This document shows, piece by piece, positions 25,325 through 63,818 of a stretch of DNA of 64,000 nt. The stretch covers positions 34,311-98,310 of the IMG/VR virus record IMGVR_UViG_3300023174_000102, one strand, 5' to 3'. The notes beneath the pieces were generated by a model. It was not told the DNA's origin and did not search any database. It saw only the letters and a program-made list of their open reading frames with translations. The number at the start of each line of letters is the position of its first letter. Position 1 is the first letter of the stretch. The translations under genes and the position numbers were made by a program. The DNA is from a virus.

Positions 25325-25351
25325 AGTCCTAGGCATGACTTTAAACTGCCC
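25325..25351 (+). ncRNA. H-type pseudoknot motif, copy 1
   Basis: AGTC-CT-AGGCA-T-GACT-TTAAAC-TGCC. Confidence 0.65.
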
Positions 25352-25354
25352 CAT

Positions 25355-25427
25355 TGCCCTATAACTCAGTTGGTAGAGTGCCGAACTGTTAATTCGGATG
25401 TCCCTGGATCGAGGCCAGGTGGGGCAG
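25355..25427 (+). tRNA. tRNA-Asn(GTT)
   Basis: Acceptor TGCCCTA/TGGGGCA, anticodon arm CCGAA-CTGTTAA-TTCGG. Confidence 0.9.
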
Positions 25428-25487
25428 CAACAGTAGTGTATAATTGTTATATCAATATGCAACAACATAGAATAAAGGAGATAGGCA

Positions 25488-26153
25488 ATGCTAAATACCA
25501 ATGGGACTGCTATACAAAGTAACAGACCACATAAGTTTTTTGAAAGATATCTAGATAATGATCTAGATGAACTTGCTAAATTTTTAGAAGTAAAGTATCA
25601 ACTAATTAAGGATGCACAACTTCGTGGTGTTAGCACAATGGAAAATGATGAAGGAGTATGGCTAGAGTCTGGAAGTTTATCAACTGTAAAGTGGAGAGAG
25701 TACAATGTGTTTCAACTTTATCATCCATCTCTACATAAGTTATACTCAGAATTATCAAGTACAGTCAAAGAAGCATGTCTTTACTATGGTGTAGACTTTG
25801 AAAAACAGCAATACTATGTTCAGGGTTGGTTTAACATTAATGAATCAGGCAATGGAAAACTTAACTGGCACGATCATGGGGCTCCAGGTGCTCCTAATTT
25901 TCATGGATATTACTGTGTAAAGGCCGAACCATCAACCACATACTATAGACTTTTTGGTGATCCAAACAGGGAAGTTGCAAATCATAATATTGATAATAGA
26001 ATGATTGTTTCAGAAATGGGTCATCCACACGCTCAGGGTGATTGGGACTGGCCTGGATCAAGAATTACAGTTGCTTATGATATTCAGCCTCTTAAGTCTC
26101 TCTTGAACGCTGGTCGTCACACAATAGAACAGCATTGGATACCATTACTTTAA
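25488..26153 (+). CDS. 2OG-Fe(II) oxygenase-like (TIGR02466-type)
   Basis: 'GWFNIN...WHDH...GYYCV...HPH...RITVAYD'. Confidence 0.7.
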   Translation: MLNTNGTAIQSNRPHKFFERYLDNDLDELAKFLEVKYQLIKDAQLRGVSTMENDEGVWLESGSLSTVKWREYNVFQLYHPSLHKLYSELSSTVKEACLYYGVDFEKQQYYVQGWFNINESGNGKLNWHDHGAPGAPNFHGYYCVKAEPSTTYYRLFGDPNREVANHNIDNRMIVSEMGHPHAQGDWDWPGSRITVAYDIQPLKSLLNAGRHTIEQHWIPLL

Positions 26154-26154
26154 A

Positions 26155-26241
26155 ATGAAAAAAATAATTAAAATTATAAGGTACTACATTATTAAAAGAA
26201 AAATTAAAAAAAACCCTATAGATAATGACTTTATATATTAA
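26155..26241 (+). CDS. 28-aa basic peptide
   Basis: MKKIIKIIRYYIIKRKIKKNPIDNDFIY fills the gap before the carbamoyltransferase. Confidence 0.5.
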   Translation: MKKIIKIIRYYIIKRKIKKNPIDNDFIY

Positions 26242-26252
26242 TTTGGAGAGAC

Positions 26253-27695
26253 ATGATAATTCTTGGTATTAATGAAACTACACATGACGCTTCAGTATCT
26301 TTGATTAAAGATGGAGAAATACTTTTTGCTGGTCATTCCGAAAGATATAGCAAACAAAAAAATGACTGGTTCACAAACAAAGAACTTATCAAAAATGCGA
26401 TTCAGTATGGCTACCCAGATCAGATTGCCTATTACGAGAAGCCTTTACTTAAGAAACTTAGAGTAAAGACTAGGGGTGGATTTGGTGGAGACAAGCCATG
26501 GTTTGAGTCTACAGAACTTGGGGACCTGCCAAGAAAAAATTTTGGTCACCACTACTCTCATGCCTCAGCGGGATACTATACAAGTTCTTTTCATGATGCC
26601 GTTATTGTTGTACTTGATGCCATAGGAGAGTTTAATACATCTACAATTTGGGTTGGTGAAGGAGAAAAGATTAAACTAAAATATAAACAAAACTATCCAG
26701 TTAGTTTTGGTCTTTTCTACTCAGCATTTACACAACTTATCGGACTTATGCCAAACCAAGAAGAATACATTATGATGGGTATGGCAGCATACGGTGACTG
26801 GCGCAGATACTATAAAGAAGTTGACGAATATTTCCCTAAATATAATAAGCAAAAATACAACTTCCATAAAGGCATCCATGACTGGGGCATGCCAATAACA
26901 GAGCAAGATAAATTTGATATTGCTGCTGCAGTCCAGGTTGTTTACGAACAAAGACTAAATGATTTTATGCATATGGCCTATTCAATTACTGGGAAAAAGA
27001 ATTTAGTCTTCATGGGTGGTTGTGCGCTCAACTCATCAGCAAACACTTTGCTATGGAATATATTTGACATGGTTTGGATCATGCCAAACCCAGGTGATGC
27101 TGGATCATCATTAGGTGCAGCAGCAGCCCTGTACGGAAAGCATATCAACTGGAAGACCCCATACCTTGGCTATGATCTTGGCGGAGAATACCCAGTCCAG
27201 CAAATTGTGGACGGTATATTGAAAGATGGAATCGTAGCAGTAGCATCAGGCAGAGCAGAGTATGGACCAAGAGCGCTAGGCAATAGAAGTATCCTTGCGG
27301 ACCCAAGAGATCCAAATATTAAGGACAAGGTTAATTTAATTAAACAGAGAGAGTTGTTTAGACCTTTTGCTCCAGTAGTTTTGGAAGAATGTGCATCTAC
27401 GTGGTTTGACATGGACTTTGCAAGTCCCTATATGCAGTATACAGTTAAGTGTCTTAAGCCAGAAAAAATTCCATCCGTTGTTCACGCTGATGGGACATCT
27501 AGAGTTCAAACAGTAAATAGAGATCAACATAGGGGTTTGTATAGAGTTTTAAATAAGTTTTATGTTGAAACTGGTGTTCCAGTACTGCTCAATACTAGTC
27601 TTAACATAAAAGGTCAGCCACTACTTAATGATGAAACAGACATCATTAAATGGGAAAAAGAATACCTTACAAAAATTATTGGACCAAATTTATGA
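26253..27695 (+). CDS. Carbamoyltransferase (NodU/CmcH/TobZ family)
   Basis: 'HDAS', 'HHYSHA', 'DAIGE', 'GGCALN', 'GDAG', 'EYGPRALGNRSILADP', 'FRPFAP', 'LNTSLN'. Confidence 0.93.
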   Translation: MIILGINETTHDASVSLIKDGEILFAGHSERYSKQKNDWFTNKELIKNAIQYGYPDQIAYYEKPLLKKLRVKTRGGFGGDKPWFESTELGDLPRKNFGHHYSHASAGYYTSSFHDAVIVVLDAIGEFNTSTIWVGEGEKIKLKYKQNYPVSFGLFYSAFTQLIGLMPNQEEYIMMGMAAYGDWRRYYKEVDEYFPKYNKQKYNFHKGIHDWGMPITEQDKFDIAAAVQVVYEQRLNDFMHMAYSITGKKNLVFMGGCALNSSANTLLWNIFDMVWIMPNPGDAGSSLGAAAALYGKHINWKTPYLGYDLGGEYPVQQIVDGILKDGIVAVASGRAEYGPRALGNRSILADPRDPNIKDKVNLIKQRELFRPFAPVVLEECASTWFDMDFASPYMQYTVKCLKPEKIPSVVHADGTSRVQTVNRDQHRGLYRVLNKFYVETGVPVLLNTSLNIKGQPLLNDETDIIKWEKEYLTKIIGPNL

Positions 27696-28600
27696 AAGAA
27701 CACAAAGAACTAACACAGTACCTAATGAGGAAGATTGTAAAGAAAAAGAACACTCATGCACTTTTTTTTAATGAAATAGACAGTGTTGTAAGACAAAAAG
27801 AAGAAGAGTTTTTAATTTATGGTGAATTGCTCAGAGAAGATTATGACCAGGATGATAGCGTAAGATATTATTTTAACTCTTTAGGTTATCGCTCAGATGA
27901 GTTTACAAATTATCATGATGGACAACATATATTATTTGCTGGTTGTTCAGAAACAGAGGGTCAGGGTGGTAACTTGGAATCTTTGTGGGCCCACATGGTG
28001 TATAAAAAACTTTCTGAGACAAAAAAAATATCTGGATTCTTTAACTTGTCAAGAGGAGGCTGGGGACACGACATAATTATCTCAAATATAATCGAGTATA
28101 TTAAAAGATATGGAAAGCCAGATAAGATTTATATATTGTTCCCAAATCTTTCAAGAGACTTTGATTGGCAAGGTCTTGAACATAACGAAGAGTTGTACTA
28201 TTATTCAATAAAGACTACATTTTTTAGTAAAAAACAATTTATTTTATCAGATGGTACAGTAAGACAAAAACAAAAGTTAAAGGAGCAAAGAGATTTAGTA
28301 ACCAAGTTTATAAACTTGATAAAACTATTTGAAGAATATTGTGCTTCAAACAACATAGAACTAATTTGGTCAACATACTCTATACCTGATGGCAAAAACT
28401 ATAAAAACCTAAATGTTTTTAACAATTTTATTGAGATGTTGGATGCTGATGAAATTATTTCTAAAAGCAAAAAATTGTTTAAAGAAGAACTGTACAATAA
28501 AAAAAATATAATAAACAAAAGAGATGGTCATCAAGGATATATTTTTCACTACCACTGGGCACAAAAATTTTTAGGTTTATCAACAGAACAAAGACTATAG
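27692..28600 (+). CDS. SGNH-hydrolase-like protein
   Basis: 'NSLGYRSDEF', 'AGCSETEG', 'NLSRGG', C-terminal 'RDGH'. Confidence 0.6.
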   Translation: MKEHKELTQYLMRKIVKKKNTHALFFNEIDSVVRQKEEEFLIYGELLREDYDQDDSVRYYFNSLGYRSDEFTNYHDGQHILFAGCSETEGQGGNLESLWAHMVYKKLSETKKISGFFNLSRGGWGHDIIISNIIEYIKRYGKPDKIYILFPNLSRDFDWQGLEHNEELYYYSIKTTFFSKKQFILSDGTVRQKQKLKEQRDLVTKFINLIKLFEEYCASNNIELIWSTYSIPDGKNYKNLNVFNNFIEMLDADEIISKSKKLFKEELYNKKNIINKRDGHQGYIFHYHWAQKFLGLSTEQRL

Positions 28601-28608
28601 GATAAATA

Positions 28609-29493
28609 ATGCAAGAATATATAATGAAAAAAATTTCAGAATCTAATAATATGAACGCATTGTTTTTTAATAAAATAGATAGCATTGTGAGATCAAAAGA
28701 AGAAGAGTTTTTAATAAATAGTGAAAAAATATTGCCAGAATTTATGGGAGACGATAACGTAAGATATTACTTTAATTCTTTAGGTTTTCGTTCAGATGAG
28801 TTTTTAGAAACTCATATAGGTAAGCATATACTCTTTGCTGGCTGTTCAGAAACAGAAGGATTTGGTGGCAGTTTAGAAGACTGTTGGTCTCATATGGTGT
28901 ATACAGAAATCTGCAAAACAGAAAAAATATCTGGATTCTTTAATCTATCAAGGGCTGGTTGGGGAAATGAAATAATAATAGCAAATATAATTCAGTATAT
29001 TAGCAGGTACGGTAAACCAGATAAAATTTACATGCTTCTACCAAATCTTTCAAGAATGTTTGAATACGTTGGACAAGAAGAAGGCCTAGAAATATATCGG
29101 CACACACAACTAACCCCCTATTGGTCAAAAAAGGAGGTAGAAGGAAATAATGGAGAAAAAAGAAAAAGGCAGACCATAGAGCATCAAAGAAACATAATTC
29201 CATCATTTGTAATTTTAATGAAACTCTTTGAAGAATATTGCATTTCTAATAATATAAAATTGGTATGGGCAACTTGGGCACAAGAAGATGGAGAAAACTA
29301 TAAAGGTTTAAATGTTTTTAATAGTTTTATCAAACTTCCAGACCATGCAGATGTAATTTTGGAAAGTAAAAATTTTCTTACCAAAGATAAAGAAAAAAGA
29401 AAGCACTTACTAAAAAAAAGAGACGGACACCACGGTTACCTATATCACTACATGTGGGCACAAACATTTTTGGGTCTGCTTGAAACAAAGTAA
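28609..29493 (+). CDS. SGNH-hydrolase-like protein (paralog of the upstream gene)
   Basis: Same motifs: AGCSETEG, NLSRAG, RDGHHG. Confidence 0.6.
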   Translation: MQEYIMKKISESNNMNALFFNKIDSIVRSKEEEFLINSEKILPEFMGDDNVRYYFNSLGFRSDEFLETHIGKHILFAGCSETEGFGGSLEDCWSHMVYTEICKTEKISGFFNLSRAGWGNEIIIANIIQYISRYGKPDKIYMLLPNLSRMFEYVGQEEGLEIYRHTQLTPYWSKKEVEGNNGEKRKRQTIEHQRNIIPSFVILMKLFEEYCISNNIKLVWATWAQEDGENYKGLNVFNSFIKLPDHADVILESKNFLTKDKEKRKHLLKKRDGHHGYLYHYMWAQTFLGLLETK

Positions 29494-29536
29494 TACTAAT
29501 GATATAATATATATAAGCCTATAGGAGGAAATAAAC

Positions 29537-30381: not shown

Positions 30382-30487
30382 TGAGAATCAAGATCATTAG
30401 GTTTGTAGTAAAGGCTTTAGGCTATGAATGGTCTGGAGATGAACTAAAACTACCAATTTGGTATGTAAAAGAAAAGAAAAAGAAGTA

Positions 30488-31272: not shown

Positions 31273-31274
31273 TT

Positions 31275-31889: not shown

Positions 31890-31898
31890 AGAGGAAAA

Positions 31899-40776: not shown

Positions 40777-40947
40777 ATATATAAGTATATCATCTAAAGT
40801 ATAGGTAGGTAGACACTATTCCAATTGAGACTTTGGCAGGTTTTATAAAGCATGCTTAATATTGGAGATTTATCAGGGTATTTACAGTGACAAGCAGGGT
40901 TGGATAGTGGTCCATAAACTGCTCATTTTCTATGCTATAATTTAAGT

Positions 40948-41562
40948 ATGAACAAAATAACAAAAAATGATATAGTTTTAGCAACACAACAAAAAAAGAT
41001 TCACATATCAAGAAATTTTATGCCAGACACTCTTTCTTGGTCAGACATAAGTGAGGTATATGACTTAGACAAAAATGTTGTATATATCTCTTTTGGATCA
41101 TTTCAAGCACAAGAAAGAGACATAATATTTCGTTATTATAAAAATGTACTAGATAGTATTGGTCAAATTTATAAAGGATACCCGCTTTTTGGTATGATCA
41201 TAGTACACTTTATAAATAGAAATAATAATATTATTAGTGATCCAGACTGTTTAAATTTGTTTAATAAGTTTCTTGAAGACAATCCTAAAAAAATTCCAGA
41301 GCACATTACTATTAGAGATCATGGAATGGACGGAGACCCTTGGGAATCTAAAGTTCATTTTGACAAAGAAAATAGAGTTTTTGTTCAAGGCGGAGGTCAA
41401 AGCCTATGGAGGCTTTTTGATGATTCAAACAATTTGACTGATGCAATTATATTAAACCCAGGAGATTTAGCATTTATACCAAAAGGGTTGCTACATAGTG
41501 TTGAGTCTGTAGGACCAAGACATTCAATAAGTATAGCCTTTTCTGATGAACCTGTGATATAA
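40948..41562 (+). CDS. Cupin/JmjC-like oxygenase
   Basis: 'HFD...LNPGDLAFIPKGLLHSV...R.SISI'. Confidence 0.75.
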   Translation: MNKITKNDIVLATQQKKIHISRNFMPDTLSWSDISEVYDLDKNVVYISFGSFQAQERDIIFRYYKNVLDSIGQIYKGYPLFGMIIVHFINRNNNIISDPDCLNLFNKFLEDNPKKIPEHITIRDHGMDGDPWESKVHFDKENRVFVQGGGQSLWRLFDDSNNLTDAIILNPGDLAFIPKGLLHSVESVGPRHSISIAFSDEPVI

Positions 41563-41620
41563 TATTAATGCCTGCCCAAAAGGGGGGTAAATTAACTTAT
41601 TCGCTTGAAAGGGGAATAAT

Positions 41621-42025
41621 ATGGTAACAACAGCACTGGATCTTTTTAATGATCCATTTTTTAATACCTTCTCAAACCTACAGAAGGTAACAACAACAAC
41701 AAACTATCCACCTTATAACCAGATCAAACTAAATGATACAGAGTATATTCTTTCATTTGCTTTGGCTGGGTTTTCTAAGGATGATGTCTCAGTATCGCTA
41801 GACAATCGCAAACTTACAATTAAGGGCGAGAAGCAGGATCCTGAGTTGCCAGAGGGTGCGGAGTATCTACATAAGGGCATTGCTGCTCGTAAGTTCACTG
41901 ATATCTTTACCCTTCCTGAGTTTGTCGAAGTTGTCGGGGCTGAATTTAAAGATGGTATCCTAGATATCAAACTTGAAAAGCAGATCCCAGAAGATAAACT
42001 ACCAAAAACTATTGAAATTCAATAG
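41621..42025 (+). CDS. Small heat-shock protein Hsp20
   Basis: 'NYPPYN', 'ALAGF', 'YLHKGIAARKF', 'DGIL'. Confidence 0.93.
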   Translation: MVTTALDLFNDPFFNTFSNLQKVTTTTNYPPYNQIKLNDTEYILSFALAGFSKDDVSVSLDNRKLTIKGEKQDPELPEGAEYLHKGIAARKFTDIFTLPEFVEVVGAEFKDGILDIKLEKQIPEDKLPKTIEIQ

Positions 42026-42038
42026 TATAATATAACAA

Positions 42039-42147
42039 ATTCCGATATAAGACTTAATAGGTTTTACAACGGATACTCGATTAAAAGAGAGTCAGCAGGC
42101 TGATGGTCGTGGCTGATAGACCTGAGCAGTCGTCTATAAACTGCTCA
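42039..42147 (+). ncRNA. Putative structured small RNA ending in pseudoknot copy 6
   Basis: TATAAT upstream; hairpins; 3' ATAGAC-CT-GAGCA-GTC-GTCTAT-AAAC-TGCTC. Confidence 0.5.
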
Positions 42148-42169
42148 TTTCCTATGCTACAATAGAATT

Positions 42170-42253
42170 GTCCCACACAGGACCTTAGAGATGGCATAGT
42201 TACCCATTGGATAGAGACCGTGGCGCAAGTCAGGTGAATTGCCTGTGTGGGGC
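42170..42253 (+). ncRNA. Putative ~84-nt structured small RNA
   Basis: 12-bp terminal stem GTCCCACACAGG/CCTGTGTGGGGC, GCAA tetraloop, TGnTACAAT promoter just upstream. Confidence 0.55.
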
Positions 42254-42280
42254 CTAATATTTGACGGTATAATGGTATCA

Positions 42281-42547
42281 ATGACTGACAAAGAGTTAGA
42301 CCATTATAATAAGCAGCAGTATAAAAAGATGCTTGCTAAGATAAAAGAGGATTCTGGCTGTGTAGACTGTGGTGTTGGTAATCATATAATCCTAGACTTT
42401 GATCACATAAGAGATAAGAAATACAACATATCAAGGATGATCCATGACGGGTTTTCTTGGAAGGCTATTAAGAAAGAGATAGAAAAATGTGAGGTGGTTT
42501 GCGCTAACTGCCATAGGATAAGGACTCATAATCGTCTTGCTGGATAA
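42281..42547 (+). CDS. HNH endonuclease
   Basis: 'CVDC...FDH...CEVVCANCHRIRT'. Confidence 0.85.
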   Translation: MTDKELDHYNKQQYKKMLAKIKEDSGCVDCGVGNHIILDFDHIRDKKYNISRMIHDGFSWKAIKKEIEKCEVVCANCHRIRTHNRLAG

Positions 42548-42567
42548 CACCATGATATAATGGTTAG

Positions 42568-43017
42568 ATGGAAGAATTGATCAACCTACTAAAGGTCCTA
42601 CTTGCAGATAACATTACCCTTAAACTTAAGGCTCATGGCTACCACTGGAATGTAGAAGGCGATGACTTCCCACAGTTCCACGATTTTTTTGGGGACATTT
42701 ATGCAGACTATGAGTCAGCAACAGATACATATGCAGAATGGCTTCGTAAATTAGATGCTTATGCACCATTTAAATTGTCTAGATTTATAGAACTCAATGA
42801 GGTTGGTGAGCCAGATGTAACATCTGATCCAATGATGATGTCTGCCGACCTGCTTATGGCAAATGATATGGTACTTGCAAAACTAACTGATGCAGTTGAG
42901 ATGGCTACAGCAAATAGACAACATGCACTTGCAAACTTCTTTGCAGAACGCATGGACCAGCATCAAAGATGGCATTGGATGCTATCTGCATCAATCAAAC
43001 CAATTGGAGAAGAATAA
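42568..43017 (+). CDS. dps: Dps/ferritin-like protein
   Basis: 'HGYHWNVEG..F...H..F', 'D..AE', 'WML'. Confidence 0.9.
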   Translation: MEELINLLKVLLADNITLKLKAHGYHWNVEGDDFPQFHDFFGDIYADYESATDTYAEWLRKLDAYAPFKLSRFIELNEVGEPDVTSDPMMMSADLLMANDMVLAKLTDAVEMATANRQHALANFFAERMDQHQRWHWMLSASIKPIGEE

Positions 43018-44162
43018 TGACAAGTTTATACAAGAGTGAAGCATCAATAGCAACATCACCAAACCCAGAAAACCCTTCTGACTCTATTAACCCAACAGTT
43101 GGAATGGCTAAGCCTGCAGTAATGCCAGCAGGAAAGAAAAAGAAAAAGAAGTATCGTGCTGCTAAGTCAATCGAATCAACAACTATTTTAAAAGACATGG
43201 TTGCTGAAGGTGACTTTGTTATTGTTGTATGTGAAGATGAAACTCATGTAGGAATTGTGCAGTATGTAATGACTGAAGGAATGCTTGGAATTGCTACATC
43301 CGATTATGCAATTGAGGCATCAGCAGAAAATCCAGCAGTACTTGTTCGTACACTTGAACTTGAAGAAGATGAGGGTATCTGGCAAGAATCAGAATATCTA
43401 GTTGGTGCAGAATCAAAGATGGTTACTAAGATTGAGCCACTTGCACTGGAAATAGAAGTAGTGTCAAATGGATATAAAGATTGTGGATGTCCTACATGCG
43501 AAGCATTAAATGTTGATTGTGAAAACTGTCCTGTATGTTCTCCAATGCCTGGAACTGATTCTGAAGTTGAGATGGCAATGTATGATTCATCTGTTGGTAA
43601 GTCAGAGTGTTGCTCAGGAAATATTTTAAAGCAAGCACCTTGCTGGGATGGTTATGTTCAGCGTGGCATGAAGCCAGGAGATAATGGAAAGATGGTTCCT
43701 AATTGTGTTCCTGCTGCAAAAGCAGATGATTTATTTGAAGATGACGACACAGTTGAATACGATACAGACACAGTATCAAAGGCTGATGGATACTCACCAC
43801 CAGCAGGAGCAAGATCTGCTGCTCGTAGAGCAATTAAGTTTAAGGAAGATGGAAAGGCTAATGGTGCAGGAACTGCAGTTGGCTGGACTCGTGCAGGGCA
43901 GTTAGCAAGAGGAGAGTCACTATCTCTTAGCACTGTTAAGAGAATGTACTCATACTTCTCACGCCATGAAGTAGACAAGAAGGGTAAGGACTGGGGTAAT
44001 ACAGCAAATCCTTCTAACGGATACATCATGTGGTTAGCATGGGGTGGAGATGCAGGTTTCTCATGGTCAAGAGGAATTGTAAATCGTGAAAAGGATAAGG
44101 CTTTGTTTGCTGACTTTGGAAAAGATTATACAAGAAACAAAACAGAAAGACATTCACTATAA
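43017..44162 (+). CDS. Multi-domain putative virion/morphogenesis protein
   Basis: 'CWDGY...VPNCVP' motif; C-terminal 'GT.VG..RA.QLA...TVKRM.SYFSRH...WGG' domain. Confidence 0.5.
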   Translation: MTSLYKSEASIATSPNPENPSDSINPTVGMAKPAVMPAGKKKKKKYRAAKSIESTTILKDMVAEGDFVIVVCEDETHVGIVQYVMTEGMLGIATSDYAIEASAENPAVLVRTLELEEDEGIWQESEYLVGAESKMVTKIEPLALEIEVVSNGYKDCGCPTCEALNVDCENCPVCSPMPGTDSEVEMAMYDSSVGKSECCSGNILKQAPCWDGYVQRGMKPGDNGKMVPNCVPAAKADDLFEDDDTVEYDTDTVSKADGYSPPAGARSAARRAIKFKEDGKANGAGTAVGWTRAGQLARGESLSLSTVKRMYSYFSRHEVDKKGKDWGNTANPSNGYIMWLAWGGDAGFSWSRGIVNREKDKALFADFGKDYTRNKTERHSL

Positions 44163-44294
44163 TGCCAAAGAAAAAAGCATCAGCATTTAACCCTATTCAG
44201 ATTAAAGATGGATGGATTGTTAGACTATATAAAGATGGTCGAGTCAAGTCTAAGATCGCACCATATGAAGTAAAGCATCCTAAAAAATAATGTT

Positions 44295-44321
44295 GGGTAG
44301 TTTTAAGTCATACCCAGGACT
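44295..44321 (-). ncRNA. H-type pseudoknot motif, copy 2
   Basis: AGTC-CT-GGGTA-T-GACT-TAAAAC-TACCC at the strand convergence point. Confidence 0.65.
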
Positions 44322-44326
44322 ATTAA

Positions 44327-44461
44327 TTACTTTCGCTTTGTAAAACCAAACATCTTTTCTTTTGCATTGCTTGCTGCTTGCTTAAACCCATAAACATATG
44401 AGCCAATCATTAAGCCAACAATTGCTGTTGAGTGTAATAAATAAAATATTGCGCTTCTCAT
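44327..44461 (-). CDS. Small membrane protein (44 aa)
   Basis: MRSAIFYLLHSTAIVGLMIGSY..., AAGGAG SD. Confidence 0.5.
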   Translation of the reverse strand: MRSAIFYLLHSTAIVGLMIGSYVYGFKQAASNAKEKMFGFTKRK

Positions 44462-44474
44462 TTACTTTTCTCCT

Positions 44475-46526
44475 TTAAAATAGATCAGCATTCATTACCT
44501 TTGTCCATGCAGAAACAAAATCATGAACAAACTTTTCCTTAGCATCGTCTGATGCATATACTTCAGCAATTGCTCTGAGTTCTGAGTTAGATGCAAGTAC
44601 GAGATCTACACGAGGGATACCCACTGCCTGATATGCATTTGTATATGAAAGTAATTTAACTAAATAACTATTGTCTAACTTTCCATTATCCAGCATTCTT
44701 ATTCCAGACAATAGCAGAACCATTTCTACTGGAGTTAATCCTAATAAATTAGACTTTTCTACCAAAAGAACCTCTTCTGGAGCAGTGATACTTGGATGAA
44801 TATAGTTGCGGAAAGCGTCAAACTTTGGTTCAAGAACTGCAAATGATTCAGAATCTGTTTGCTCTTGAGTTGCATCTCCACGACTAAACTTTGCATTAAT
44901 AACTACACCAATGTCAGAATTATGTGCAGCAAGTTGAACTCCAACCAAACCAGCAAAAACAATTAGGTCTGCAAGAGATACATCAAATTCAGATTTTATT
45001 TCATTTAAAACAGACACAACTCTGTTAATTGCTTCATGGTCATTTACTTCCCATGTATTCTGTGGAGCAAGAACAATTCTTGCACCGTTAGCACCACCAC
45101 GCTTGTCTGTCTTACGGAATGTTGATGCAGAAGCCCATGCAGTAGTTGTCAAATCAGAAACAGATAAACCAGATGACATAATTTTTTCTTTAATTGCATC
45201 TACATCTTCTTGTGTAAGACTATCTCTTGTAGGCTTACCGACTGGATCTTGCCAGATAAGTTCTTCTGATGGAACTTCCTTACCAAGATATCTTGCAATA
45301 GGGCCCATATCTCTATGTGTTAACTTAAACCAAGCACGAGCAAACTGGTCTGAGAAGTAGTCAAAGTCCTCAAGGAATCTGCGTGAAATCTTCTCATACT
45401 CAGGGTCAAATCTCAATGCAAGGTCTGCTGTTGTCATAACTGGAGCATGAAACTTGCCCTCAACGTGTGCATCTGGAACTAAGTTAGCAGCAGACTCATC
45501 TGTTGGAATCCATTGAGTTGCACCAGCAGGAGACTTTGTTTGTGACCAATCATACTTAAACAATAACTTAAGGTATGAGTTATCCCATTTAGTTGGAGTT
45601 GCAGTCCAGGCACCTTCAATACCACTTGTGATTGTATGTTCTGCATTACCCTTGCCAAATGAATTCTTCCATCCAAGACCAAGTTCTTCAAGTTGAGCAG
45701 CCTCTGGATTAGGACCAACGTGTGAAGGATCTCCAGCCCCATGCGCCTTACCAAATGCGTGTCCACCAGCAATAAGTGCAACGGTTTCTTCATCATTCAT
45801 CGCCATGCGAGCAAAGGTTTCACGAATATCTCGTGCAGAAAGAACTGGATCAGGATTTCCATTAGGTCCTTCAGGGTTTACATAGATCAATCCCATCTGC
45901 ACTGCAGCAAGCGGGTTTTCTAACTCACGGTCTCCGCTATAACGGTTATCTGCAAGCCATTCTTTTTCTGTACCCCAGTAGGAATCATCTGATTCCCAAA
46001 CATCTGCACGACCACCAGCAAAACCAAATGTCTTAAAGCCCATGTTCTCAAGAGCAACGTTACCTGCAAGAATCATTAGGTCTGCCCATGAAATCTTCTT
46101 GCCGTACTTTTGCTTAATTGGCCAAAGAAGTCTACGAGCCTTATCTAAGTTACCATTATCTGGCCAAGAATTTTGTGGAGCAAATCTGTGTAGTCCTTCA
46201 CCTGCACCACCACGACCATCAGTTACTCTGTATGTACCAGCACTGTGCCATGCCATACGAATAAAGAATGGACCATAGTTACCATAGTCTGCAGGCCACC
46301 AATCTTGCGAGGTAGTTAGAAGTGTGTTAATATCATTCTTAACAGCATCAAGATCTAAACTATTAAACTCATTAGCATAGTCAAATCCATCTGGCATAGG
46401 GTCAGACTTCTCTGAATGCTTTCTCAACCCCGATAGGTCTAACTGATTAGTCCACCAGTCCTTGTTTGTTGTTGCATCCTTGCTAGATGATTTGCCAGTT
46501 ACTGGACATTTTTCTTCGCTCATCAT
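44475..46526 (-). CDS. katG: Catalase-peroxidase
   Basis: 'KCPV', 'RMAWH', '[10 protein letters not shown]', '[14 protein letters not shown]'; start reassigned to 46526/46523 because the longer ORF overlaps tRNAs. Confidence 0.95.
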
Positions 46527-46562
46527 GTATCTCTTTCTCTCGTTTACTTCAATTATACCACG

Positions 46563-46634
46563 CACCCCTGGCAGGAATCGAACCTGCGACAAACGGATTA
46601 GAAGTCCGCTACTCTTCCGCTGAGTTACAGAGGT
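46563..46634 (-). tRNA. tRNA-Arg(TCT)
   Basis: Acceptor ACCTCTG/CAGGGGT; GCGGA-CTTCTAA-TCCGT; GGTTCGA. Confidence 0.9.
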
Positions 46635-46638
46635 CCAG

Positions 46639-46712
46639 TACATCTGGAAGGACTTGAACCTTCGGCTCTCTGCATATAAGGCAGGTACTCTAACCAACTG
46701 AGTTACAGATGT
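46639..46712 (-). tRNA. tRNA-Ile(TAT)
   Basis: Acceptor ACATCTG/CAGATGT; CTGC-CTTATAT-GCAG; GGTTCAA. Confidence 0.85.
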
Positions 46713-46716
46713 GTAG

Positions 46717-46791
46717 TACACCAGGTAGGACTTGAACCTACGAATAGCCGAATTATGAGTTCGGTGCCTTAACCAACTTGGCTACTGGTGC
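46717..46791 (-). tRNA. tRNA-CAT (elongator Met or Ile2)
   Basis: Acceptor GCACCAG/CTGGTGT; CCGAA-CTCATAA-TTCGG. Confidence 0.88.
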
Positions 46792-54305: not shown

Positions 54306-55733
54306 TCAAACAAAATCAAACCAGATTGGCATTATATATCTTGAACCATTTGCTGGTCCTACATGATACCAATAGTGAGGATTTCCAGGGAATATAACCA
54401 AATCACCAGCCTTTGGCTTAAGTGATAATCCCTGATTAATAAATGACAAACCTCCACCATCATAATCATCATTTAAATAAACCCAACCTGCCATATGATT
54501 TGAGTCTTTGTGACCCATGTCATCTATTGGTATAGTTGGACTATTATTATGAACCCATTGAGCAAAACGAGAATTTCTTGGCTTTAGTTTTACACCAAAT
54601 TCTTTTTCTACGATAGACTGAATACCAGGTATATATTTTTCTGAATAGGTAAGTGAATCATAATACAATAAGGATAGCGTAGGATTTCCAAAACTGTCTG
54701 GTTGCAAAGGACGATTATTGCTTGTTTCTGTACTATTTATAAGTCCTATAATATGTTCACACTCTTCTTTGCTTAGATAATTCTCAAACACTTTTATGTT
54801 GTTAGGATTACTTCCAATATTATTAAAGTTTTGTACTGTTAGGTCAGAATAACCAATGACATTTCCTTCAGGCACCACAATATCATTAAAGTTTTTTACC
54901 ATATCCAACAACTTGCTAATATCTTCTTGATCAGTATGAATCATAAAATCATAAATTCCAAATTGCTGAGATAGATTTCTTATTTGTGCAACAACATCAA
55001 CCAATTTTCCCTTTATTAAATGATTCTGCTGTCTAACTGGGGCATTCTTGTCATACTTAACATGCTTTTCATCGTCTGGATGGGTCGTAATAAGTGGGTC
55101 AATAATAACTATTGGCTTTACCTTATCTAGATCAATCTTTTTAAACTGGTCTCTAAACAATAGATTATCATCAACATAAATATATTCACAATGTTTGTTT
55201 GCTATTCCAATTGTTGTATCTGACGAGCCAACAACTGCCATATGGGTTTTGTGCTGATGAGCATCCATCAAATCCATAAACTTGTCCATCCAAACTGCAG
55301 AGATAGCAACTCTTTTTGCAAGAGTATCGATAAGTGATGGGTCGTGCATGTAATGATCTATAACTATTTTCTCAGACTTATCGTTTCCTTCATCTCCCCA
55401 TCTTCCAGAAACAAGGTTTACACCAATTCTTCCAGGTGCAAACTTATTTAAGGTATCAACAATCTTAGCAGCATAGTCAGGACTTGTTCCGTATGCTGGT
55501 AGTGCAATTGTCATTATTAGTTGATTTGTTTTTTCTAATGCCTCTTTTATAACTAATGAAAAATCAATACCTCCTGGGCCGTATGGAAGCAAAACAGATT
55601 TCACATTGGCTCCATCTAATTCTTGTGCCATGCCAAGAATTCCCTGAAGGTCTAGGTTTTCAATGCTGTCGTTTATCTGCCAGTGTCTTCTCCACATCCA
55701 GTGAAATGTTATAGGCTTATTGTTATTTTCCAT
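54306..55733 (-). CDS. Luciferase-like monooxygenase fused to a P4H-like 2OG-Fe(II) domain
   Basis: N-terminal 'TLNKFAPGRIGVNLVSG'; C-terminal 'YLNDDYDGG...KPKAGDLVIFP...H.V...RY'. Confidence 0.7.
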   Translation of the reverse strand: MENNNKPITFHWMWRRHWQINDSIENLDLQGILGMAQELDGANVKSVLLPYGPGGIDFSLVIKEALEKTNQLIMTIALPAYGTSPDYAAKIVDTLNKFAPGRIGVNLVSGRWGDEGNDKSEKIVIDHYMHDPSLIDTLAKRVAISAVWMDKFMDLMDAHQHKTHMAVVGSSDTTIGIANKHCEYIYVDDNLLFRDQFKKIDLDKVKPIVIIDPLITTHPDDEKHVKYDKNAPVRQQNHLIKGKLVDVVAQIRNLSQQFGIYDFMIHTDQEDISKLLDMVKNFNDIVVPEGNVIGYSDLTVQNFNNIGSNPNNIKVFENYLSKEECEHIIGLINSTETSNNRPLQPDSFGNPTLSLLYYDSLTYSEKYIPGIQSIVEKEFGVKLKPRNSRFAQWVHNNSPTIPIDDMGHKDSNHMAGWVYLNDDYDGGGLSFINQGLSLKPKAGDLVIFPGNPHYWYHVGPANGSRYIMPIWFDFV

Positions 55734-57235: not shown

Positions 57236-57337
57236 TATTTAATTATACCATTCGGCGAAAAGTTGTAAAGTCTTTAAAGTTCGGCGCAAAATAGAAGTAA
57301 TAAACCTCCCTATGCCCTAAAAGGGCAATAGTGGTTA

Positions 57338-59216: not shown

Positions 59217-59283
59217 GGTTTGGGGAAAATAAAGTTTGGTTCGTAATGTCCTGGTTTGGGGAAATTATGGTTTGGTTCGTAAT
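59217..59283. repeat. 31-bp imperfect direct repeat x2
   Basis: GGTTTGGGGAAAATAAAGTTTGGTTCGTAAT / GGTTTGGGGAAATTATGGTTTGGTTCGTAAT. Confidence 0.85.
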
Positions 59284-59346
59284 AAGGTTTGATGGTTTGA
59301 AATAGGCACCGCCCCGTTCCAGCCCCGCAGGGCCAGAATGGAAAGC

Positions 59347-59610
59347 CTAGTCCTCGTCGCCCATTAAGTCATCAAGTGTTTCAAACCCTGTATCCTCAAC
59401 ATCCAAACCTTCAAGCAACAAATCAAATGTTTCGTTTATGTATTGCTCTAGTGTTGGTGTGTGGTTAATGATACCCTCGGCAAATGCAAAAGCAAGTGGC
59501 AAGCCTAAGTCATTGTATTCAAAGAAGTCTGACATTTCGTCATCTCCTTTGTAGTGAATCCATAACTGTCCTAAGATTAGTGCCTTGTTCTCAAAGGTTG
59601 TTGTAAGCAT
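59347..59610 (-). CDS. Hypothetical acidic protein
   Basis: 87 aa, GGAAGG SD. Confidence 0.55.
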   Translation of the reverse strand: MLTTTFENKALILGQLWIHYKGDDEMSDFFEYNDLGLPLAFAFAEGIINHTPTLEQYINETFDLLLEGLDVEDTGFETLDDLMGDED

Positions 59611-59797
59611 AATTAGTACCTTCCTTAGTTTCTTTGGCTGACTCTGCTATTACCTGTAAACGATTATACACTACATGGGGTTGGGATTTTGCCAAGTATT
59701 CCCCGACTAATTCCAAATCTACACGCAGGTCAGATACCATGTTGCCTAACTTCATGGCAACCTTTTCTTCCTCTGTTGTTCTACGACTTACACGCAT
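59591..59797 (-). CDS. Hypothetical protein
   Basis: 68 aa, GGGAG SD. Confidence 0.55.
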   Translation of the reverse strand: MRVSRRTTEEEKVAMKLGNMVSDLRVDLELVGEYLAKSQPHVVYNRLQVIAESAKETKEGTNYAYNNL

Positions 59798-59890
59798 AGT
59801 TCTCCCTTGTATTCATTGTATCAAAAAGTGGGGGAAAGAGCAAGCCCCACGCCTGCCCCTTCCACCCTATTAATCTAGGTGACCCAATAC

Positions 59891-60256
59891 CTAGATCTGA
59901 TCAACTAAACTTGGTGCGTATGCTGCTACAAATGAAGCCCAGTTTACTTTAACATCTGAGCCGTGCTCGTATACAGTTTTATGTAGTAGGTCGACAATGA
60001 CTGTCATGTCTCCTAGTTCGTAGTTAGGACCGTTGACTGCATAGATACCAAACCCTGTCTCCTCTAGCACGGAATCCTGAATAAGATAACTAATCATCAT
60101 ACGTGTAGCATATGAGTCATCTGACCACCTAGGCTTTGAATGCTCCAGGGCCATTGCTAGGTCCCGTTGCCATTCTGTCTCACCCCAGTGGCTGTAGAGT
60201 ACTACTGCAGGATGTGCGTCTGAGTCTTTAAATACGTAGTTAATACGGGCTCCCAT
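59891..60256 (-). CDS. Hypothetical phage protein
   Basis: 'MGAR...LYSHWG...RWSD.SY..R'. Confidence 0.6.
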   Translation of the reverse strand: MGARINYVFKDSDAHPAVVLYSHWGETEWQRDLAMALEHSKPRWSDDSYATRMMISYLIQDSVLEETGFGIYAVNGPNYELGDMTVIVDLLHKTVYEHGSDVKVNWASFVAAYAPSLVDQI

Positions 60257-60440
60257 TATGATAACTCCTCTTCCTCTTCAATGTCTGTGATTTCTAGTGG
60301 GTACCAATCGAATGCATATTCCTCAACATCCTCATTGAGTTCAATACGATTCACTTCTTCAATGGCTTCTTCTTCAGATTCGGCCTCAAAGTTAAATTCA
60401 TAGATAGTTTCTCTTTTGGCTATGATTGTGTATAGTGGCA

Positions 60441-60803
60441 TTACTTCTCCTCGCATTGGTGGGGTTCATCTTCTTCAATTATCTCATCGCATAGTTCACA
60501 TGTCAAGTCAGGCTCTGCAACCATTATCTGAATATTTGTATCAGGTGGGCACGGCACATCTGTGATGAAGTATCCTAGTCTATTTACAAATCCCCAGCCA
60601 GACCAGATGTATAGGCCACCGTCGTCTCCGTCTCCAAACATCCAAATTTTGTCAGGGGATTGAGACTTAACAAACTCTACCTCACTACCATAGGTCTCAA
60701 ACATAAGACCGTCAAAGGAGGCATTAGTATCAAGATGATTATCGATAGGCTTGTAAGTGGCTTCCCACTCTTCCATAGTAAGTTCAATAAAATTATTTGG
60801 CAT
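60441..60803 (-). CDS. Hypothetical phage protein
   Basis: 'FETYG.E...G.GFVNRLGYFIT..P'. Confidence 0.6.
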   Translation of the reverse strand: MPNNFIELTMEEWEATYKPIDNHLDTNASFDGLMFETYGSEVEFVKSQSPDKIWMFGDGDDGGLYIWSGWGFVNRLGYFITDVPCPPDTNIQIMVAEPDLTCELCDEIIEEDEPHQCEEK

Positions 60804-61401
60804 CGTATTGCTCATCAAAGATTAGGAAGTGGGCAACTGATAGTGCTTCTGCATAGCCTTCTGCAAATGAGCACTCTAGTGCTACATCATGGTTGTCAGG
60901 CTTTTCTTCCTGTTCCTGTAATGAATACTTGTACTCTTTCCAAGCATCGTCAATCATGTCTTGCAACATTTCTTGTGGGGTCATTGGGTCTCCTCTATGT
61001 GTTTTCTGTCTATAGATAAATTATAGGTCATGCAATAGGCATTTGTCAAGGCCTCCATATATCCTTCTAAATACCTATCAGCATTATCTTTCATTGCTTC
61101 CTCGCAGTCAAGCATTTCTACTTTAAGCCAACTGTGCATTAGATCAATCAATGGAATAGAGGTGTCTTCTAATGCTTTCGTAAGGTGCTCAGGTATAAAA
61201 GGATACTTACTCATTGATTACCTCGATTAAATGTTTAACAGCATAGATTTGTCCCTCGATATCTACCACATGGATAGAAGCAGGGTTTTCTTCAAGGTCT
61301 TGTTCAAGACTTATAAGGTGCAGGTTTAGGTATTGCTTAAAGGTTTCTAGGTCCATATATTAATTATAAGGGTTTGAGTTGATTTTTACAACTTCTGAGG
61401 G

Positions 61402-61417
61402 TGTGATACTAGTCACA
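61402..61417. promoter_or_regulatory. CRP/GlxR-type palindrome
   Basis: TGTGA-TACTAG-TCACA upstream of a minus-strand TATAAT promoter. Confidence 0.6.
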
Positions 61418-61908
61418 TAGTTATTAACTAGATAAGCACGCATCTCTTCCAGGGCATCAATTGATTCCTCACATACTACAATCATATCTTCTCTAGTCAT
61501 TAGTCAAAATACCCTTCTGCCCATAAGCCCTGGAGAAATGCATAGGTCTTAGCCAAACCATCAGAAACAGTTTCATCTGTTGTGTAGTCATGAGCAGTAC
61601 CAACTGAGTCAATCATTTCATCTAATTCTATTTTAGTATATCCTAACATTAGTTCTCCTCATCCCACCAGTATTTGACAATTGTATTCAAGGTAGTGTGG
61701 ATTGCACAATCACAATCTCCACCGTTCATATTTTCCATGTATTCGAGATGTTGCTCATTGTCCATGTACATCTCATTGACTAGTTCGTCAATCGTTCTCA
61801 TTGTTTGGGTCATAGATTAATTCTACCCTAGAACTGGGGAAAATACAAGTCCTTCTTAATAGAATTTTGGTTTGACATTTTTTGAAAACTGTGACCGCCC
61901 CATTTTTG

Positions 61909-61982
61909 CGATCCGTACGGGACTTGAACCCGTGACCTCTACCGTGACAGGGTAGCGAACTAACCAACTATTCTAACGGACC
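61909..61982 (-). tRNA. tRNA-Asp(GTC)
   Basis: Acceptor GGTCCGT/ACGGATC; CTACC-CTGTCAC-GGTAG; GGTTCAA. Confidence 0.92.
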
Positions 61983-61985
61983 GTG

Positions 61986-62014
61986 TGAGCAGTTTTAAAT
62001 CTTGCTCAGGATTT
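61986..62014 (-). ncRNA. H-type pseudoknot motif, copy 3
   Basis: AAATC-CT-GAGCA-A-GATTT-AAAAC-TGCTC. Confidence 0.65.
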
Positions 62015-62021
62015 TTTTTAA

Positions 62022-63038
62022 CTATGCAATTTGCAAAGTGCTTTGCACAACTTTCAACAAACGATTTTTCTCTGCGTTAATTGCAGGGTCAAAACCACTT
62101 GCAGATGCAAGGATAGATTCGTTAGAACCACCACGAGCAGAACGGTACCAATCTAAACGCTCTGTTAGTGCATTGAAAGCACCCCATGCGTTACCAGCAA
62201 TCATTCCGTTAAACTCGCCTGTGTAGATGTCGTTAATAACATCAACCTTGTTTTCCCACTTCTTGAAAGCACCCTTAGCATCTTTATCAGGCTTAGGGTA
62301 TGCAGCAAGAATGATGTCGTTGAATTGCTTAGCATTGACTTCTGTTTCAATCATTGCCTTAGCCATAAGGTCAAAAGAATCCATGTACTTATGAGCCATG
62401 CCAAGAGTCTCACGAGCAACTTGTACCTTACCAGCAGCAGTCTGAGTGTGGCGAATCTTGAAAGATTGCTTGACACCATTCTTTTTCTTAGTAGTGTTAA
62501 GTGCAAGATTGAGAGTATTAGCGCAAACAACACGAACAGGTGTAATTGACGCTTGAATTGCAATCGAGCCATCATGTGATGTGTTGATGAGCAAATAAGT
62601 CTTTACCTTATCTGCAACACCATTTGGGTCAAGAATAGTTTCACGCTCTAGTGCTAATGCACCGAATACAACACGTCCACCCTTGATTGAGCCAGCAGTT
62701 TCCCAACGTCCACCACCGTCTAGAATGTTATCACCAAATGAAAATAAATCTTCATTCTGCATAACATGATAACGCTCACCTACGACACCAAGAATGTCTG
62801 TCTGTGAATTATCTGTAGGGTTAGTACGCAAAACGTACTGATAGTTTTTATCGCTTGTGAGATGTGAGGGGGTTTCCAAATCTTCAAGACGAACATTCCA
62901 ATTAGAAAGGTTAGCCAAATCTAACATTTCTTTTGTTGTTTTTTCCTCTGTGAAAACGGTACCCAATCCATGCCAAGCAGGTTCACGAAATGATGCAAAA
63001 CTTGCTACGCCATTTTGTGTTTCTAGTTCATGTGCCAT
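62022..63038 (-). CDS. DUF932 (TIGR03299-like) protein
   Basis: 'MAHELE...AWHGLG', 'ETAGS..GG', 'SHDGS', 'PVRVVCANTL', 'IRHT'. Confidence 0.88.
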   Translation of the reverse strand: MAHELETQNGVASFASFREPAWHGLGTVFTEEKTTKEMLDLANLSNWNVRLEDLETPSHLTSDKNYQYVLRTNPTDNSQTDILGVVGERYHVMQNEDLFSFGDNILDGGGRWETAGSIKGGRVVFGALALERETILDPNGVADKVKTYLLINTSHDGSIAIQASITPVRVVCANTLNLALNTTKKKNGVKQSFKIRHTQTAAGKVQVARETLGMAHKYMDSFDLMAKAMIETEVNAKQFNDIILAAYPKPDKDAKGAFKKWENKVDVINDIYTGEFNGMIAGNAWGAFNALTERLDWYRSARGGSNESILASASGFDPAINAEKNRLLKVVQSTLQIA

Positions 63039-63139
63039 GAGTTTTCTCCTTTTTGTTGTTGAGATTTAAGTATAACAGGACAGACTGACAAATGCAAATC
63101 AGGATACGTAAACATAGGGCAAATCGGACATTTCTTAAT

Positions 63140-63172
63140 TGTGTCGTAACTCACTTTGTGATCTTGGTCACA
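63140..63172. promoter_or_regulatory. Tandem CRP/GlxR-type sites
   Basis: TGTGA-TCTTGG-TCACA (63157-63172) plus near match TGTGT-N6-TCACT (63140-63155). Confidence 0.6.
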
Positions 63173-63205
63173 CAGGGCGGTCCGCATTTTGCGGAAGAGG
63201 TGAAG

Positions 63206-63232
63206 GAGCAGTTTTACAACATGCTCAGGTTT
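63206..63232 (-). ncRNA. H-type pseudoknot motif, copy 4
   Basis: AAC-CT-GAGCA-T-GTT-GTAAAAC-TGCTC. Confidence 0.6.
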
Positions 63233-63247
63233 ATTAGTAGCCCCCTA

Positions 63248-63673
63248 CTAAATATCTATACGGTCAACGTTGGATGATAAGTAAGTTACACCCTGTGGCT
63301 CAGACACTGAATCAAAATCAATCTCGTGAATTAAATTCATTGCTTCCTCTTCATCACGTGCATTGACTGTAATTGAATATTGAACTGTAACTTCTAATTC
63401 AAATTCTTTTGTTAGTTCAAATCCACAAATATCTGCAATTTCTTGTGCAGTACTTTCTGAAATGGTACCGTCACTCAATTGCTCCAAGGTCCACTCTTGC
63501 ATTTCATTCTGCATGCGTGAACGTTCTGCTGCTTCGCCGTATGATCGTTGGGTTACCGTTGAGATATGTGATTCAAGATTAGCAATACGCTCATCTTTCT
63601 TTGCAATTTCTGACTTAAGAAAATCTTCTGTTGCTTTGATGTCTACTAGTGTTGCTGCGAATGGAGTTTCCAT
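63248..63673 (-). CDS. Hypothetical acidic coiled-coil protein
   Basis: 141-aa ORF with promoter TTGTCA...TACAAT upstream. Confidence 0.6.
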   Translation of the reverse strand: METPFAATLVDIKATEDFLKSEIAKKDERIANLESHISTVTQRSYGEAAERSRMQNEMQEWTLEQLSDGTISESTAQEIADICGFELTKEFELEVTVQYSITVNARDEEEAMNLIHEIDFDSVSEPQGVTYLSSNVDRIDI

Positions 63674-63790
63674 TGGGGGCCTTCTTTCTGTTAGTTTGTT
63701 TAATTCAATTGTACTTTAGTGCACTGACAAATAGTGCCATACCCCTAGGGGATCCTTGCTAACCATAGCGTGAAACGCAAGGGGTAAGGC

Positions 63791-63818
63791 TGAGCAGTTT
63801 AGCGACATACTCAGGTCG
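63791..63818 (-). ncRNA. H-type pseudoknot motif, copy 5
   Basis: CGAC-CT-GAGTA-T-GTCG-CTAAAC-TGCTC. Confidence 0.65.

Follow-up and report, generated by a model that had tools for sequence, protein, structure and literature searches.

Dispersed over the final 64 kb of a linear virus record of 98,310 bp (IMG/VR record IMGVR_UViG_3300023174_000102), a stretch analysed here at its full length and referred to as the window, are six short repeats that are real copies of one small interlocked RNA fold. This fold is an H-type pseudoknot of 26-31 nucleotides (nt), for which neither Rfam 15 nor the searched literature has an entry. Judged from sequence and genomic context, the knot most likely forms and shields RNA 3' ends. 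Taken further, it would be a portable 3'-end module of phage transcripts, which blocks exonucleases everywhere and terminates transcription where a run of uridines (U-tract) follows, a reading for which we regard the balance as evenly poised.

All six dispersed copies proposed in an initial annotation of the sequence were recovered, and the whole record holds the same six and no others; four of the starts given there were correct, while those at 61986 and 63791 were each one position off (61987 and 63792). From 5' to 3' each copy comprises the first strand of helix P1 (3-6 bp), the loop L1 (CU), 5 nt of helix P2, the loop L2 of 1-3 nt, the second strand of P1, the loop L3 (N0-3 AAAC) and the second strand of P2. 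The copies, with the tRNAs and the uridine run adjoining them, are:

25325-25351, plus strand: copy 1, AGTC-CT-AGGCA-T-GACT-TT-AAAC-TGCCC, 31.1 bits
25355-25428, plus strand: tRNA-Asn(GTT)
42116-42146, plus strand: copy 2, ATAGAC-CT-GAGCA-GTC-GTCTAT-AAAC-TGCTC, 27.3 bits
44282-44287, minus strand: U6 run, beginning 7 nt after copy 3
44295-44321, minus strand: copy 3, AGTC-CT-GGGTA-T-GACT-TA-AAAC-TACCC, 31.5 bits
61908-61982, minus strand: tRNA-Asp(GTC)
61987-62014, minus strand: copy 4, AAATC-CT-GAGCA-A-GATTT-A-AAAC-TGCTC, 40.3 bits
63206-63231, minus strand: copy 5, AAC-CT-GAGCA-T-GTT-GTA-AAAC-TGCTC, 29.6 bits
63792-63818, minus strand: copy 6, CGAC-CT-GAGTA-T-GTCG-CT-AAAC-TGCTC, with one G.U pair in P2, 36.3 bits

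In copy 1, P2 consists of 4 bp and an A.C mismatch. Bit scores refer to a covariance model built from 150 family members on P1 plus sequence, with which the six copies scored 27.3-40.3 bits (E 1e-7 to 2e-4); the next best match in the 64 kb reached 13.6 bits (E 0.37). A sequence-free structural descriptor gave 0.8 matches per shuffled genome.

Relatives were taken from IMG/VR, where the pattern CCTGAGCA-N3-12-AAACTGCTC matched at least 120 stretches and a further 80 loci were obtained via the neighbouring DUF932 protein, with about 3.5 copies per 7 kb. The resulting family set contains 454 copies in 325 unique contexts, with 223 distinct motif sequences. Both helices covary in hundreds of these phage contigs and in bacterial assemblies from over ten phyla. 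The covariation of P1 and P2 and the invariance of the CU and AAAC loops, as the initial annotation had described them, were confirmed in the window copies and in their relatives alike. When instances were defined only by the two conserved strings, a P1 of at least 3 bp was present in 96%, compared to 25% with the flanks swapped; when they were defined only by P1, CU and AAAC, P2 pairing was bimodal, and 236 of 354 instances were fully paired, by 16 pair combinations including GAGCA/TGCTC, AAGCA/TGCTT, GAGTA/TACTC, GAACA/TGTTC, GGGTA/TACCC, GGACA/TGTCC and GGCCA/TGGCC, with GAGCA/UGCUC as the usual one. A gapless alignment of 150 sequences had 95.9% paired cells versus 69.8% in shuffles and a covariation score of 0.675 versus 0.186, a value which none of 500 shuffles reached; slid controls showed 29-41% pairing. 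With L1 and L3 left free, CU and AAAC co-occurred in 130 of 135 instances. Moreover, at the syntenic site between DUF932 gene and tRNA-Asp, taken by position alone, the knot is kept in 47 of 48 distinct relatives, with changes from G-C to A-U.

L2 is a single nucleotide in 315 of the 325 unique contexts (U 179, A 103, C 28, G 5), and the pairs at the junction are nearly fixed (C-G 84%, A-U 91%). Either helix alone is marginal, nested folds amounting to -3 to -8 kcal/mol, and stability must therefore come from the knot and its tertiary contacts. Since the two interleaved helices covary and the open reading frame (ORF) upstream lies on the strand of the knot in a ratio of 390:21, selection acts on the single-stranded fold of the transcribed strand and not on duplex DNA, as had been supposed from the six copies.

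The position of the knots relative to genes is equally regular. With ORFs called by a simple longest-ORF rule, 429 of the 454 copies (94%) are intergenic, and the median distance is 15 nt from the preceding stop codon (3-4 nt at the least) and 125 nt to the start that follows. In the window, copy 1 is situated 5 nt past the TAA of ORF 24372-25319, copy 4 lies 7 nt past the TAG of the DUF932 gene (62022-63038), copy 5 follows the TAG of ORF 63248-63673 by 16 nt and copy 6 the TAA of ORF 63831-63998+ by 12 nt. The earlier count of five copies 5-15 nt after a stop was thus overstated, as with ORFs of at least 51 amino acids (aa) only these four (at 5, 7, 16 and 12 nt) are found close to one. Copy 3 stands 5 nt after the stop of a putative 44-aa ORF and 153 nt after a KatG-like gene; it forms the end of the minus-strand gene block, and the strands converge there, as previously noted. 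Copy 2 is located 90 nt past the Hsp20 stop, with no ORF directly before it.

Downstream features were classified in 300 unique contexts: a tRNA follows within 15 nt in 13%, the next ORF within 45 nt in 18%, a strong sigma-70-like promoter in 11% and a convergent gene in 6%, the remainder having none of these. The promoters after the knot were all in sense direction (34 of 300, antisense 0). In relatives, small promoter-gene-knot cassettes stand in variable succession upstream of DUF932 (L121-L200, about 1000-4050 in locus coordinates), and their knots lie near 1000, 1600, 2200, 2800 and 4020; this suggests that early-gene units are modular and exchangeable, with the knot as their boundary.

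Two further observations belong to the surroundings of copy 5. A hairpin, TAGTAG-GGGG-CTACTA, directly upstream of it (63235-63250, minus strand) overlaps the stop of ORF 63248-63673 and is kept in dozens of relatives. In the intergenic region after copy 5, a perfect TGTGA-N6-TCACA palindrome with the shape of a CRP/FNR-type operator occupies 63157-63172, and similar GTGTGA...TCACAC palindromes recur past the orthologous knot in many relatives.

Closeness to stop codons, 5-9 nt in many copies, together with a fold like that of known recoding knots, could indicate a recoding signal acting on the upstream gene by stop read-through or -1 frameshifting. This was rejected, and is extremely unlikely: tandem in-frame stops precede the knot in 39 of 156 cases, in 109 of 156 a ribosome reading through would run into another in-frame stop ahead of the knot's 3' end, slippery heptamers were found in only 8 of 156, and tRNAs or promoters directly follow. 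Furthermore, in a crudely de-replicated set the genes preceding knots end in TAA in 70% versus 53% and in TGA, the leakiest stop, in 10% versus 27%. Preference for TAA, avoidance of TGA and tandem stops are what would be expected if ribosomes must stay off the knot.

The relation to tRNAs is strictly polar. In 81 cases a knot has a tRNA behind it within 60 nt, the distance being 3-14 nt in 80 of these and 33 nt in the other one, whereas a tRNA followed by a knot did not occur among 170 tRNAs. Copy 1 ends 3 nt ahead of tRNA-Asn, exactly as first described, but the gap between copy 4 and tRNA-Asp is 4 nt and not 3. After cleavage by RNase P at the 5' end of tRNA-Asn, the RNA upstream would end in copy 1 and 3 further nt. 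Because the knot is always 5' of the tRNA and never 3' (81 versus 0), a 3'-end cap remaining after RNase P has released the tRNA appears the best supported among the functions originally proposed for the element. As a separate candidate, a mimic of the tRNA acceptor with 3' ACCA was rejected, since the share of contexts with ACC behind the knot, about 16%, is little above the expectation from position-specific composition (A 64%, C 50%, C 47%), and all six window copies lack it.

A further feature of the sequence behind the knot is the U-tract, defined as at least five U in 8 nt beginning 0-2 nt after P2; like the test for terminators, this is a simple consensus rule. Among 275 de-replicated copies 74 (27%) carry such a tract directly past the knot, compared to 4 at +30 and 13 at +45 (1.5-5%), and they occur in many unrelated contigs. 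Copies with a U-tract have a tRNA downstream in 4% of cases, the others in 15%, and an ORF within 45 nt in 9% against 22%. Canonical terminators of hairpin plus U-tract and the knot nearly exclude each other, as the former were detected in 5 of 114 knot-bearing intergenic regions versus 89 of 623 others (p = 0.002, about three-fold depletion), with the same trend in both locus sets. The first 10 nt after the knot are poor in G (9%, about 22% further on); a Rho rut site was ruled out, given that this stretch comprises only about 10 nt. U-tracts had been denied for the window copies altogether, which is correct for four of them but not for copy 3, with its U6 run, and copy 2, with a U-rich tail; by the family-wide rule, too, these two of the six have one.

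From these data the knot could be mainly a factor-independent terminator in which it replaces the GC-rich hairpin. Enrichment of U-tracts directly past it, the rarity of canonical terminators in intergenic regions that contain it, the terminator slot which it fills in the promoter-gene-knot cassettes and the scarcity of canonical terminators near the six window copies all speak for this. Yet 73% of the copies have no U-tract, and tRNAs at 3-14 nt and ORFs within 45 nt downstream leave no room for a promoter of their own and so would be made by read-through. The knot alone is consequently not an efficient terminator, and the non-canonical terminator considered in the initial annotation gains some support from the U-tracts and the depletion of ordinary terminators, but not for the element by itself; as the principal function we consider it unlikely.

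Copy 2 is apparently the end of a transcript that encodes no protein. The elements around it, and a related site upstream, are:

42023-42031, plus strand: TAGTATAAT, a -10-like element overlapping the Hsp20 stop codon, presumed promoter of a small RNA of about 110 nt
42038-42115, plus strand: body of the small non-coding RNA, three hairpins
42155-42163, plus strand: TGCTACAAT, an extended -10 element 8 nt past copy 2, promoter of the next unit
40916-40941, plus strand: degenerate half-copy AAACTGCTC followed by the same promoter (TGCTATAAT, 40933-40941)

In an alignment with five relatives TAGTATAAT is invariant (6 of 6), even where the upstream gene is a different one, and the body, about 75 nt of hairpins, shows five base pairs with compensatory changes among the five (in L002, L041, L054 and L077). 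Since promoter-like element, compensated hairpins and knot follow one another in this alignment, copy 2 appears to be the 3' end of a small RNA of about 110 nt with its own promoter (42023-42146, plus strand), for which Rfam gave no match. With the next -10 element beginning only 8 nt after copy 2, no other 3'-end signal or terminator fits in between.

The half-copy at 40916-40941, which lacks the 5' half of the knot, is a paralogue of 42138-42163 and reached only 10.9 bits with the covariance model. A promoter element, with AAACTGCTC as a MotA-box-like motif at -30, was considered and rejected, as it fits only copy 2 and this half-copy and promoter spacing is variable elsewhere. Directly past copy 2 a second small structured RNA with the TGCTACAAT promoter was noticed (42155-42253, plus strand), which has a 12-bp closing stem (about 42170-42181 with 42242-42253); it is conserved in L041 and L096, and L002 and L077 lack it.

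A barrier of the opposite polarity has to be weighed against the protection of 3' ends. As a 5'-to-3' insulator similar to coremin (xrRNA-C), an element of RNA viruses, the knot would stop non-terminating or post-termination scanning ribosomes, maybe also exonucleases that work 5'-to-3' like RNase J, and thereby shield the tRNA, small RNA or cistron downstream. Its architecture is that of luteoviral frameshift knots and of the Watson-Crick variant of coremin, which are resistant to ribosomes and Xrn1 (PMC10321173), and ...UAAAC-U... after hairpin 1 is common to knot and coremin; lying 4-18 nt past stops, it would be touched by the terminating ribosome, and it is found directly before tRNAs and, in 18% of copies, up to 45 nt upstream of the next ORF. 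However, the second hairpin (hp2) that coremin needs against Xrn1 is not enriched, as 53 of 275 copies have a hairpin of 4 bp or more with its start 0-2 nt past the knot, compared to 54 at +25 and 57.7 in shuffles. The enrichment of U-tracts, the depletion of terminators and copy 2, the end of a small RNA with only a promoter behind it, are left unexplained, and to our knowledge RNase J is absent from many host groups with the knot. We judge such an insulator rather unlikely.

The distribution of the family is wide. In 596 Gb of bacterial and archaeal assemblies the pattern gave 122 matches, about two thirds of which are chance hits without P1, as expected from 17 fixed bases in so much sequence; only the roughly 40 with true geometry were used. 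These span more than ten phyla and include Saccharibacteria, Firmicutes, Actinobacteriota, Chloroflexota, Cyanobacteria, Proteobacteria and Bacteroidota, with copies in Saccharibacteria, Adlerbacteria, Aminicenantes, Lachnospiraceae and other Clostridia, Lacticaseibacillus and Eggerthellaceae, in Anaerolineae, Calothrix, Polynucleobacter, Coxiellaceae, Hyphomicrobiales and Chitinophaga, and in Atribacterota, Omnitrophica and Thermodesulfobacteriota. Such breadth argues for a universal partner or none at all. That the element could not be assigned to a named family was borne out: Rfam 15 gave no match at gathering score over the whole window and none at E <= 10 around four copies. A literature search with the two conserved strings returned only unrelated coincidences with primers and sequences; a keyword search brought no description of the motif, and neither of two candidate papers, PMC10690425 and bioRxiv 10.64898/2026.10.21.760802, contains one.

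Conservation goes beyond the needs of pairing in the loops CU and AAAC, at the junction pairs and in the usual GAGCA/UGCUC, which might mean that a conserved protein or a small ligand binds there, or that the knot is a very small ribozyme, in a regulatory or anti-defence role. We hold this to be very unlikely. Although no formal co-occurrence test was made, the loci examined showed no recurrent gene next to the copies; an L2 of a single nucleotide (U > A > C) offers no pocket like that of the preQ1-I riboswitch, and no ribozyme or riboswitch model matched even at E <= 10. The suggestion that the copies are decoys for type III (ToxI) antitoxins found no support, since they are dispersed over 38 kb, none in tandem or beside a toxin gene; their neighbours are DUF932, Hsp20, a peroxidase and genes without known function, though a dedicated search for ToxN was not made.

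According to the 3'-end module favoured here, the knot would be a mechanical stop for 3'-to-5' exonucleases, and 3' ends made downstream would be trimmed back to it and no further, which would protect the upstream message or small RNA. Such ends could arise by RNase P at an adjoining tRNA, by an endonuclease cut in the G-poor tail or by distal termination. Where a U-tract follows directly, P2 forming at the RNA exit channel would act like a terminator hairpin and transcription would end; where it does not, the polymerase would read on into the next gene or tRNA. With regard to structure, CU of L1 would cross the deep groove of P2 and engage in major-groove triples with its purine-rich 5' strand, and AAAC of L3 would lie in the minor groove of P1. 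Such triples and groove contacts would account for a P1 of variable sequence next to fixed loops and junction pairs, and they would make 9 bp unusually stable, so that a dedicated protein partner would not be needed, which fits the spread over many phyla.

Several points weigh against this reading. Nine base pairs seem small for an exonuclease block, and the triples that would stabilise them are themselves postulated. Closeness to stop codons may merely reflect the compactness of phage genomes. Orthologous copies inflate many of the counts, with crude de-replication and ORFs called by length only; for example, 76 of the 81 knot-tRNA cases represent the orthologous DUF932/tRNA-Asp site. Finally, termination is not a general function, as the copies without a U-tract make up the majority.

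An even broader proposition is put forward tentatively, and we lean slightly against it: the 27-nt triple-stabilised knot would be a universal, self-sufficient and protein-independent 3'-end module that stops 3'-to-5' exonucleases, and the counterpart in the bacterial world of viral exonuclease-resistant RNAs (xrRNAs), to which a U-tract adds termination. In phages and mobile elements from over ten phyla, mRNAs, small RNAs and the RNAs that RNase P sets free would carry it where a terminator or REP hairpin might otherwise stand. If the 3'-end reading is right, the knot would be among the most widespread uncatalogued cis-acting RNA elements of phages and represent a new structural way to make and protect RNA 3' ends, with a pseudoknot taking the place of a hairpin. 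It would account for the way transcripts are delimited in phages with few canonical terminators, mark the ends of genes, small RNAs and operons in the annotation of uncultured phages, and supply synthetic biology with a 27-nt stabiliser or insulator that does not require termination. Bacterial RNA decay would moreover be linked to the exonuclease-resistant RNAs of eukaryotic viruses, a connection open to simple reporter and nuclease assays.

The record itself is that of a freshwater phage with an estimated completeness of 89% (CheckV) and a GC content of 37%. Its products include a large terminase, a tail protein, a carbamoyltransferase and a DnaE-like polymerase with at most 55% identity to counterparts in Streptomyces phages; Hsp20, a ferritin-like protein, a KatG-like peroxidase and the DUF932 protein are also encoded. 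Close phage relatives were not found when 4 kb were compared by megablast with 50,697 phage records. The window contains five tRNAs, and genes are on the plus strand up to about 44.16 kb and on the minus strand from the contig end down to about 44.3 kb. A cluster of stress and auxiliary genes, odd for a phage, extends over 40948-46499:

40948-41562: JmjC-like gene
41621-42025: Hsp20
42239-42547: cytochrome c552-like fragment
42568-43017: ferritin-like gene
44475-46499, minus strand: KatG-like catalase-peroxidase of about 674 aa

The ORF call of 748 aa for the peroxidase (44475-46721) overlaps a cluster of tRNA-Met, tRNA-Ile and tRNA-Arg with 3-nt spacers (46562-46791, minus strand), and its true start is therefore further downstream; no pseudoknot is present upstream of this tRNA cluster. 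Two other genes were noted, a Nol-like carbamoyltransferase (26253-27695, plus strand) and one for a protein of 475 aa (54306-55733, minus strand) with a C-terminal match to the 2OG-Fe(II) oxygenase and endonuclease V families.

Among known systems, luteoviral frameshift knots and coremin with its Watson-Crick variant are closest in shape. Coremin is known from plant, fungal and picorna-like RNA viruses (PMC6546385, PMC10520033, PMC10321173). Like the phage element it combines a short hairpin with a spacer containing UAAAC, the 3' end of which pairs with or contacts the hairpin loop; both are H-type knots of similar size in untranslated or intergenic regions, and both are thought to be mechanical roadblocks. 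The loop of coremin hairpin 1 has the consensus YGAD (4 nt) or YGNNAD (6 nt) (PMC10520033), whereas the loop of the knot, C-U-(5 nt of P2)-N, is at least 8 nt long and has an invariant U instead of G at its second position. The coremin spacer of about 10 nt (GUUAAACUAC), with its 3' part contacting the loop, has N0-3-AAAC and the subsequent U in common with the knot and differs in the remainder. Furthermore, P2 of the knot is a full Watson-Crick helix of 5 bp, the hp2 required for Xrn1 resistance is not enriched, the knot is carried by DNA phages, whose bacterial hosts have no Xrn1, and the context points to protection of 3' ends and not to a 5' block. As hp2 is not enriched and the loop does not follow the consensus, the resemblance to coremin is one of architecture, not of membership. 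The -1 frameshift knots of luteoviruses (BWYV, PLRV; PMC10321173) have about 28 nt, two short stems, an L1 of 1-2 nt, an A-rich L3 with triplex contacts and a single nucleotide at the helical junction, all as in the phage knot, whose triplex contacts are putative. The latter, in contrast, has no slippery site, lies past stop codons and not in a gene overlap, and is followed by tRNAs or promoters.

The preQ1-I riboswitch is likewise a minimal H-type knot with an A-rich L3 ending in AAAC-U. Its L2, however, comprises 4-6 nt with a conserved C pairing the ligand and that of the phage knot 1 nt, and the latter is placed at gene ends and not in leaders of que genes. The covariance model of the riboswitch (RF00522) gave no match, either at gathering score in the window or at E <= 10 around four of the copies.

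The nearest analogues by function are terminator hairpins, the 3'-stabilising REP hairpins and the triple helix of MALAT1 with its RNase P site. Rho-independent terminators and REP hairpins are, like the knot, intergenic, oriented with the upstream gene, close past its stop and present in multiple dispersed copies, and this REP-like layout was observed in the knot family; the U-tract in a subset of knots and the near absence of ordinary terminators beside them add to the likeness with terminators. On the other hand, the knot is a pseudoknot with invariant loops and not a GC-rich palindrome, and most copies have no U-tract. At the 3' end of MALAT1 and MEN-beta a triple helix is followed by a tRNA-like RNA which RNase P cuts. 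In copies 1 and 4 a putatively triple-stabilised structure is similarly situated directly upstream of an RNase P substrate, and cleavage would leave a protected 3' end, although here the substrate is a true tRNA, no A-rich 3' tail is clamped and most copies have no tRNA.

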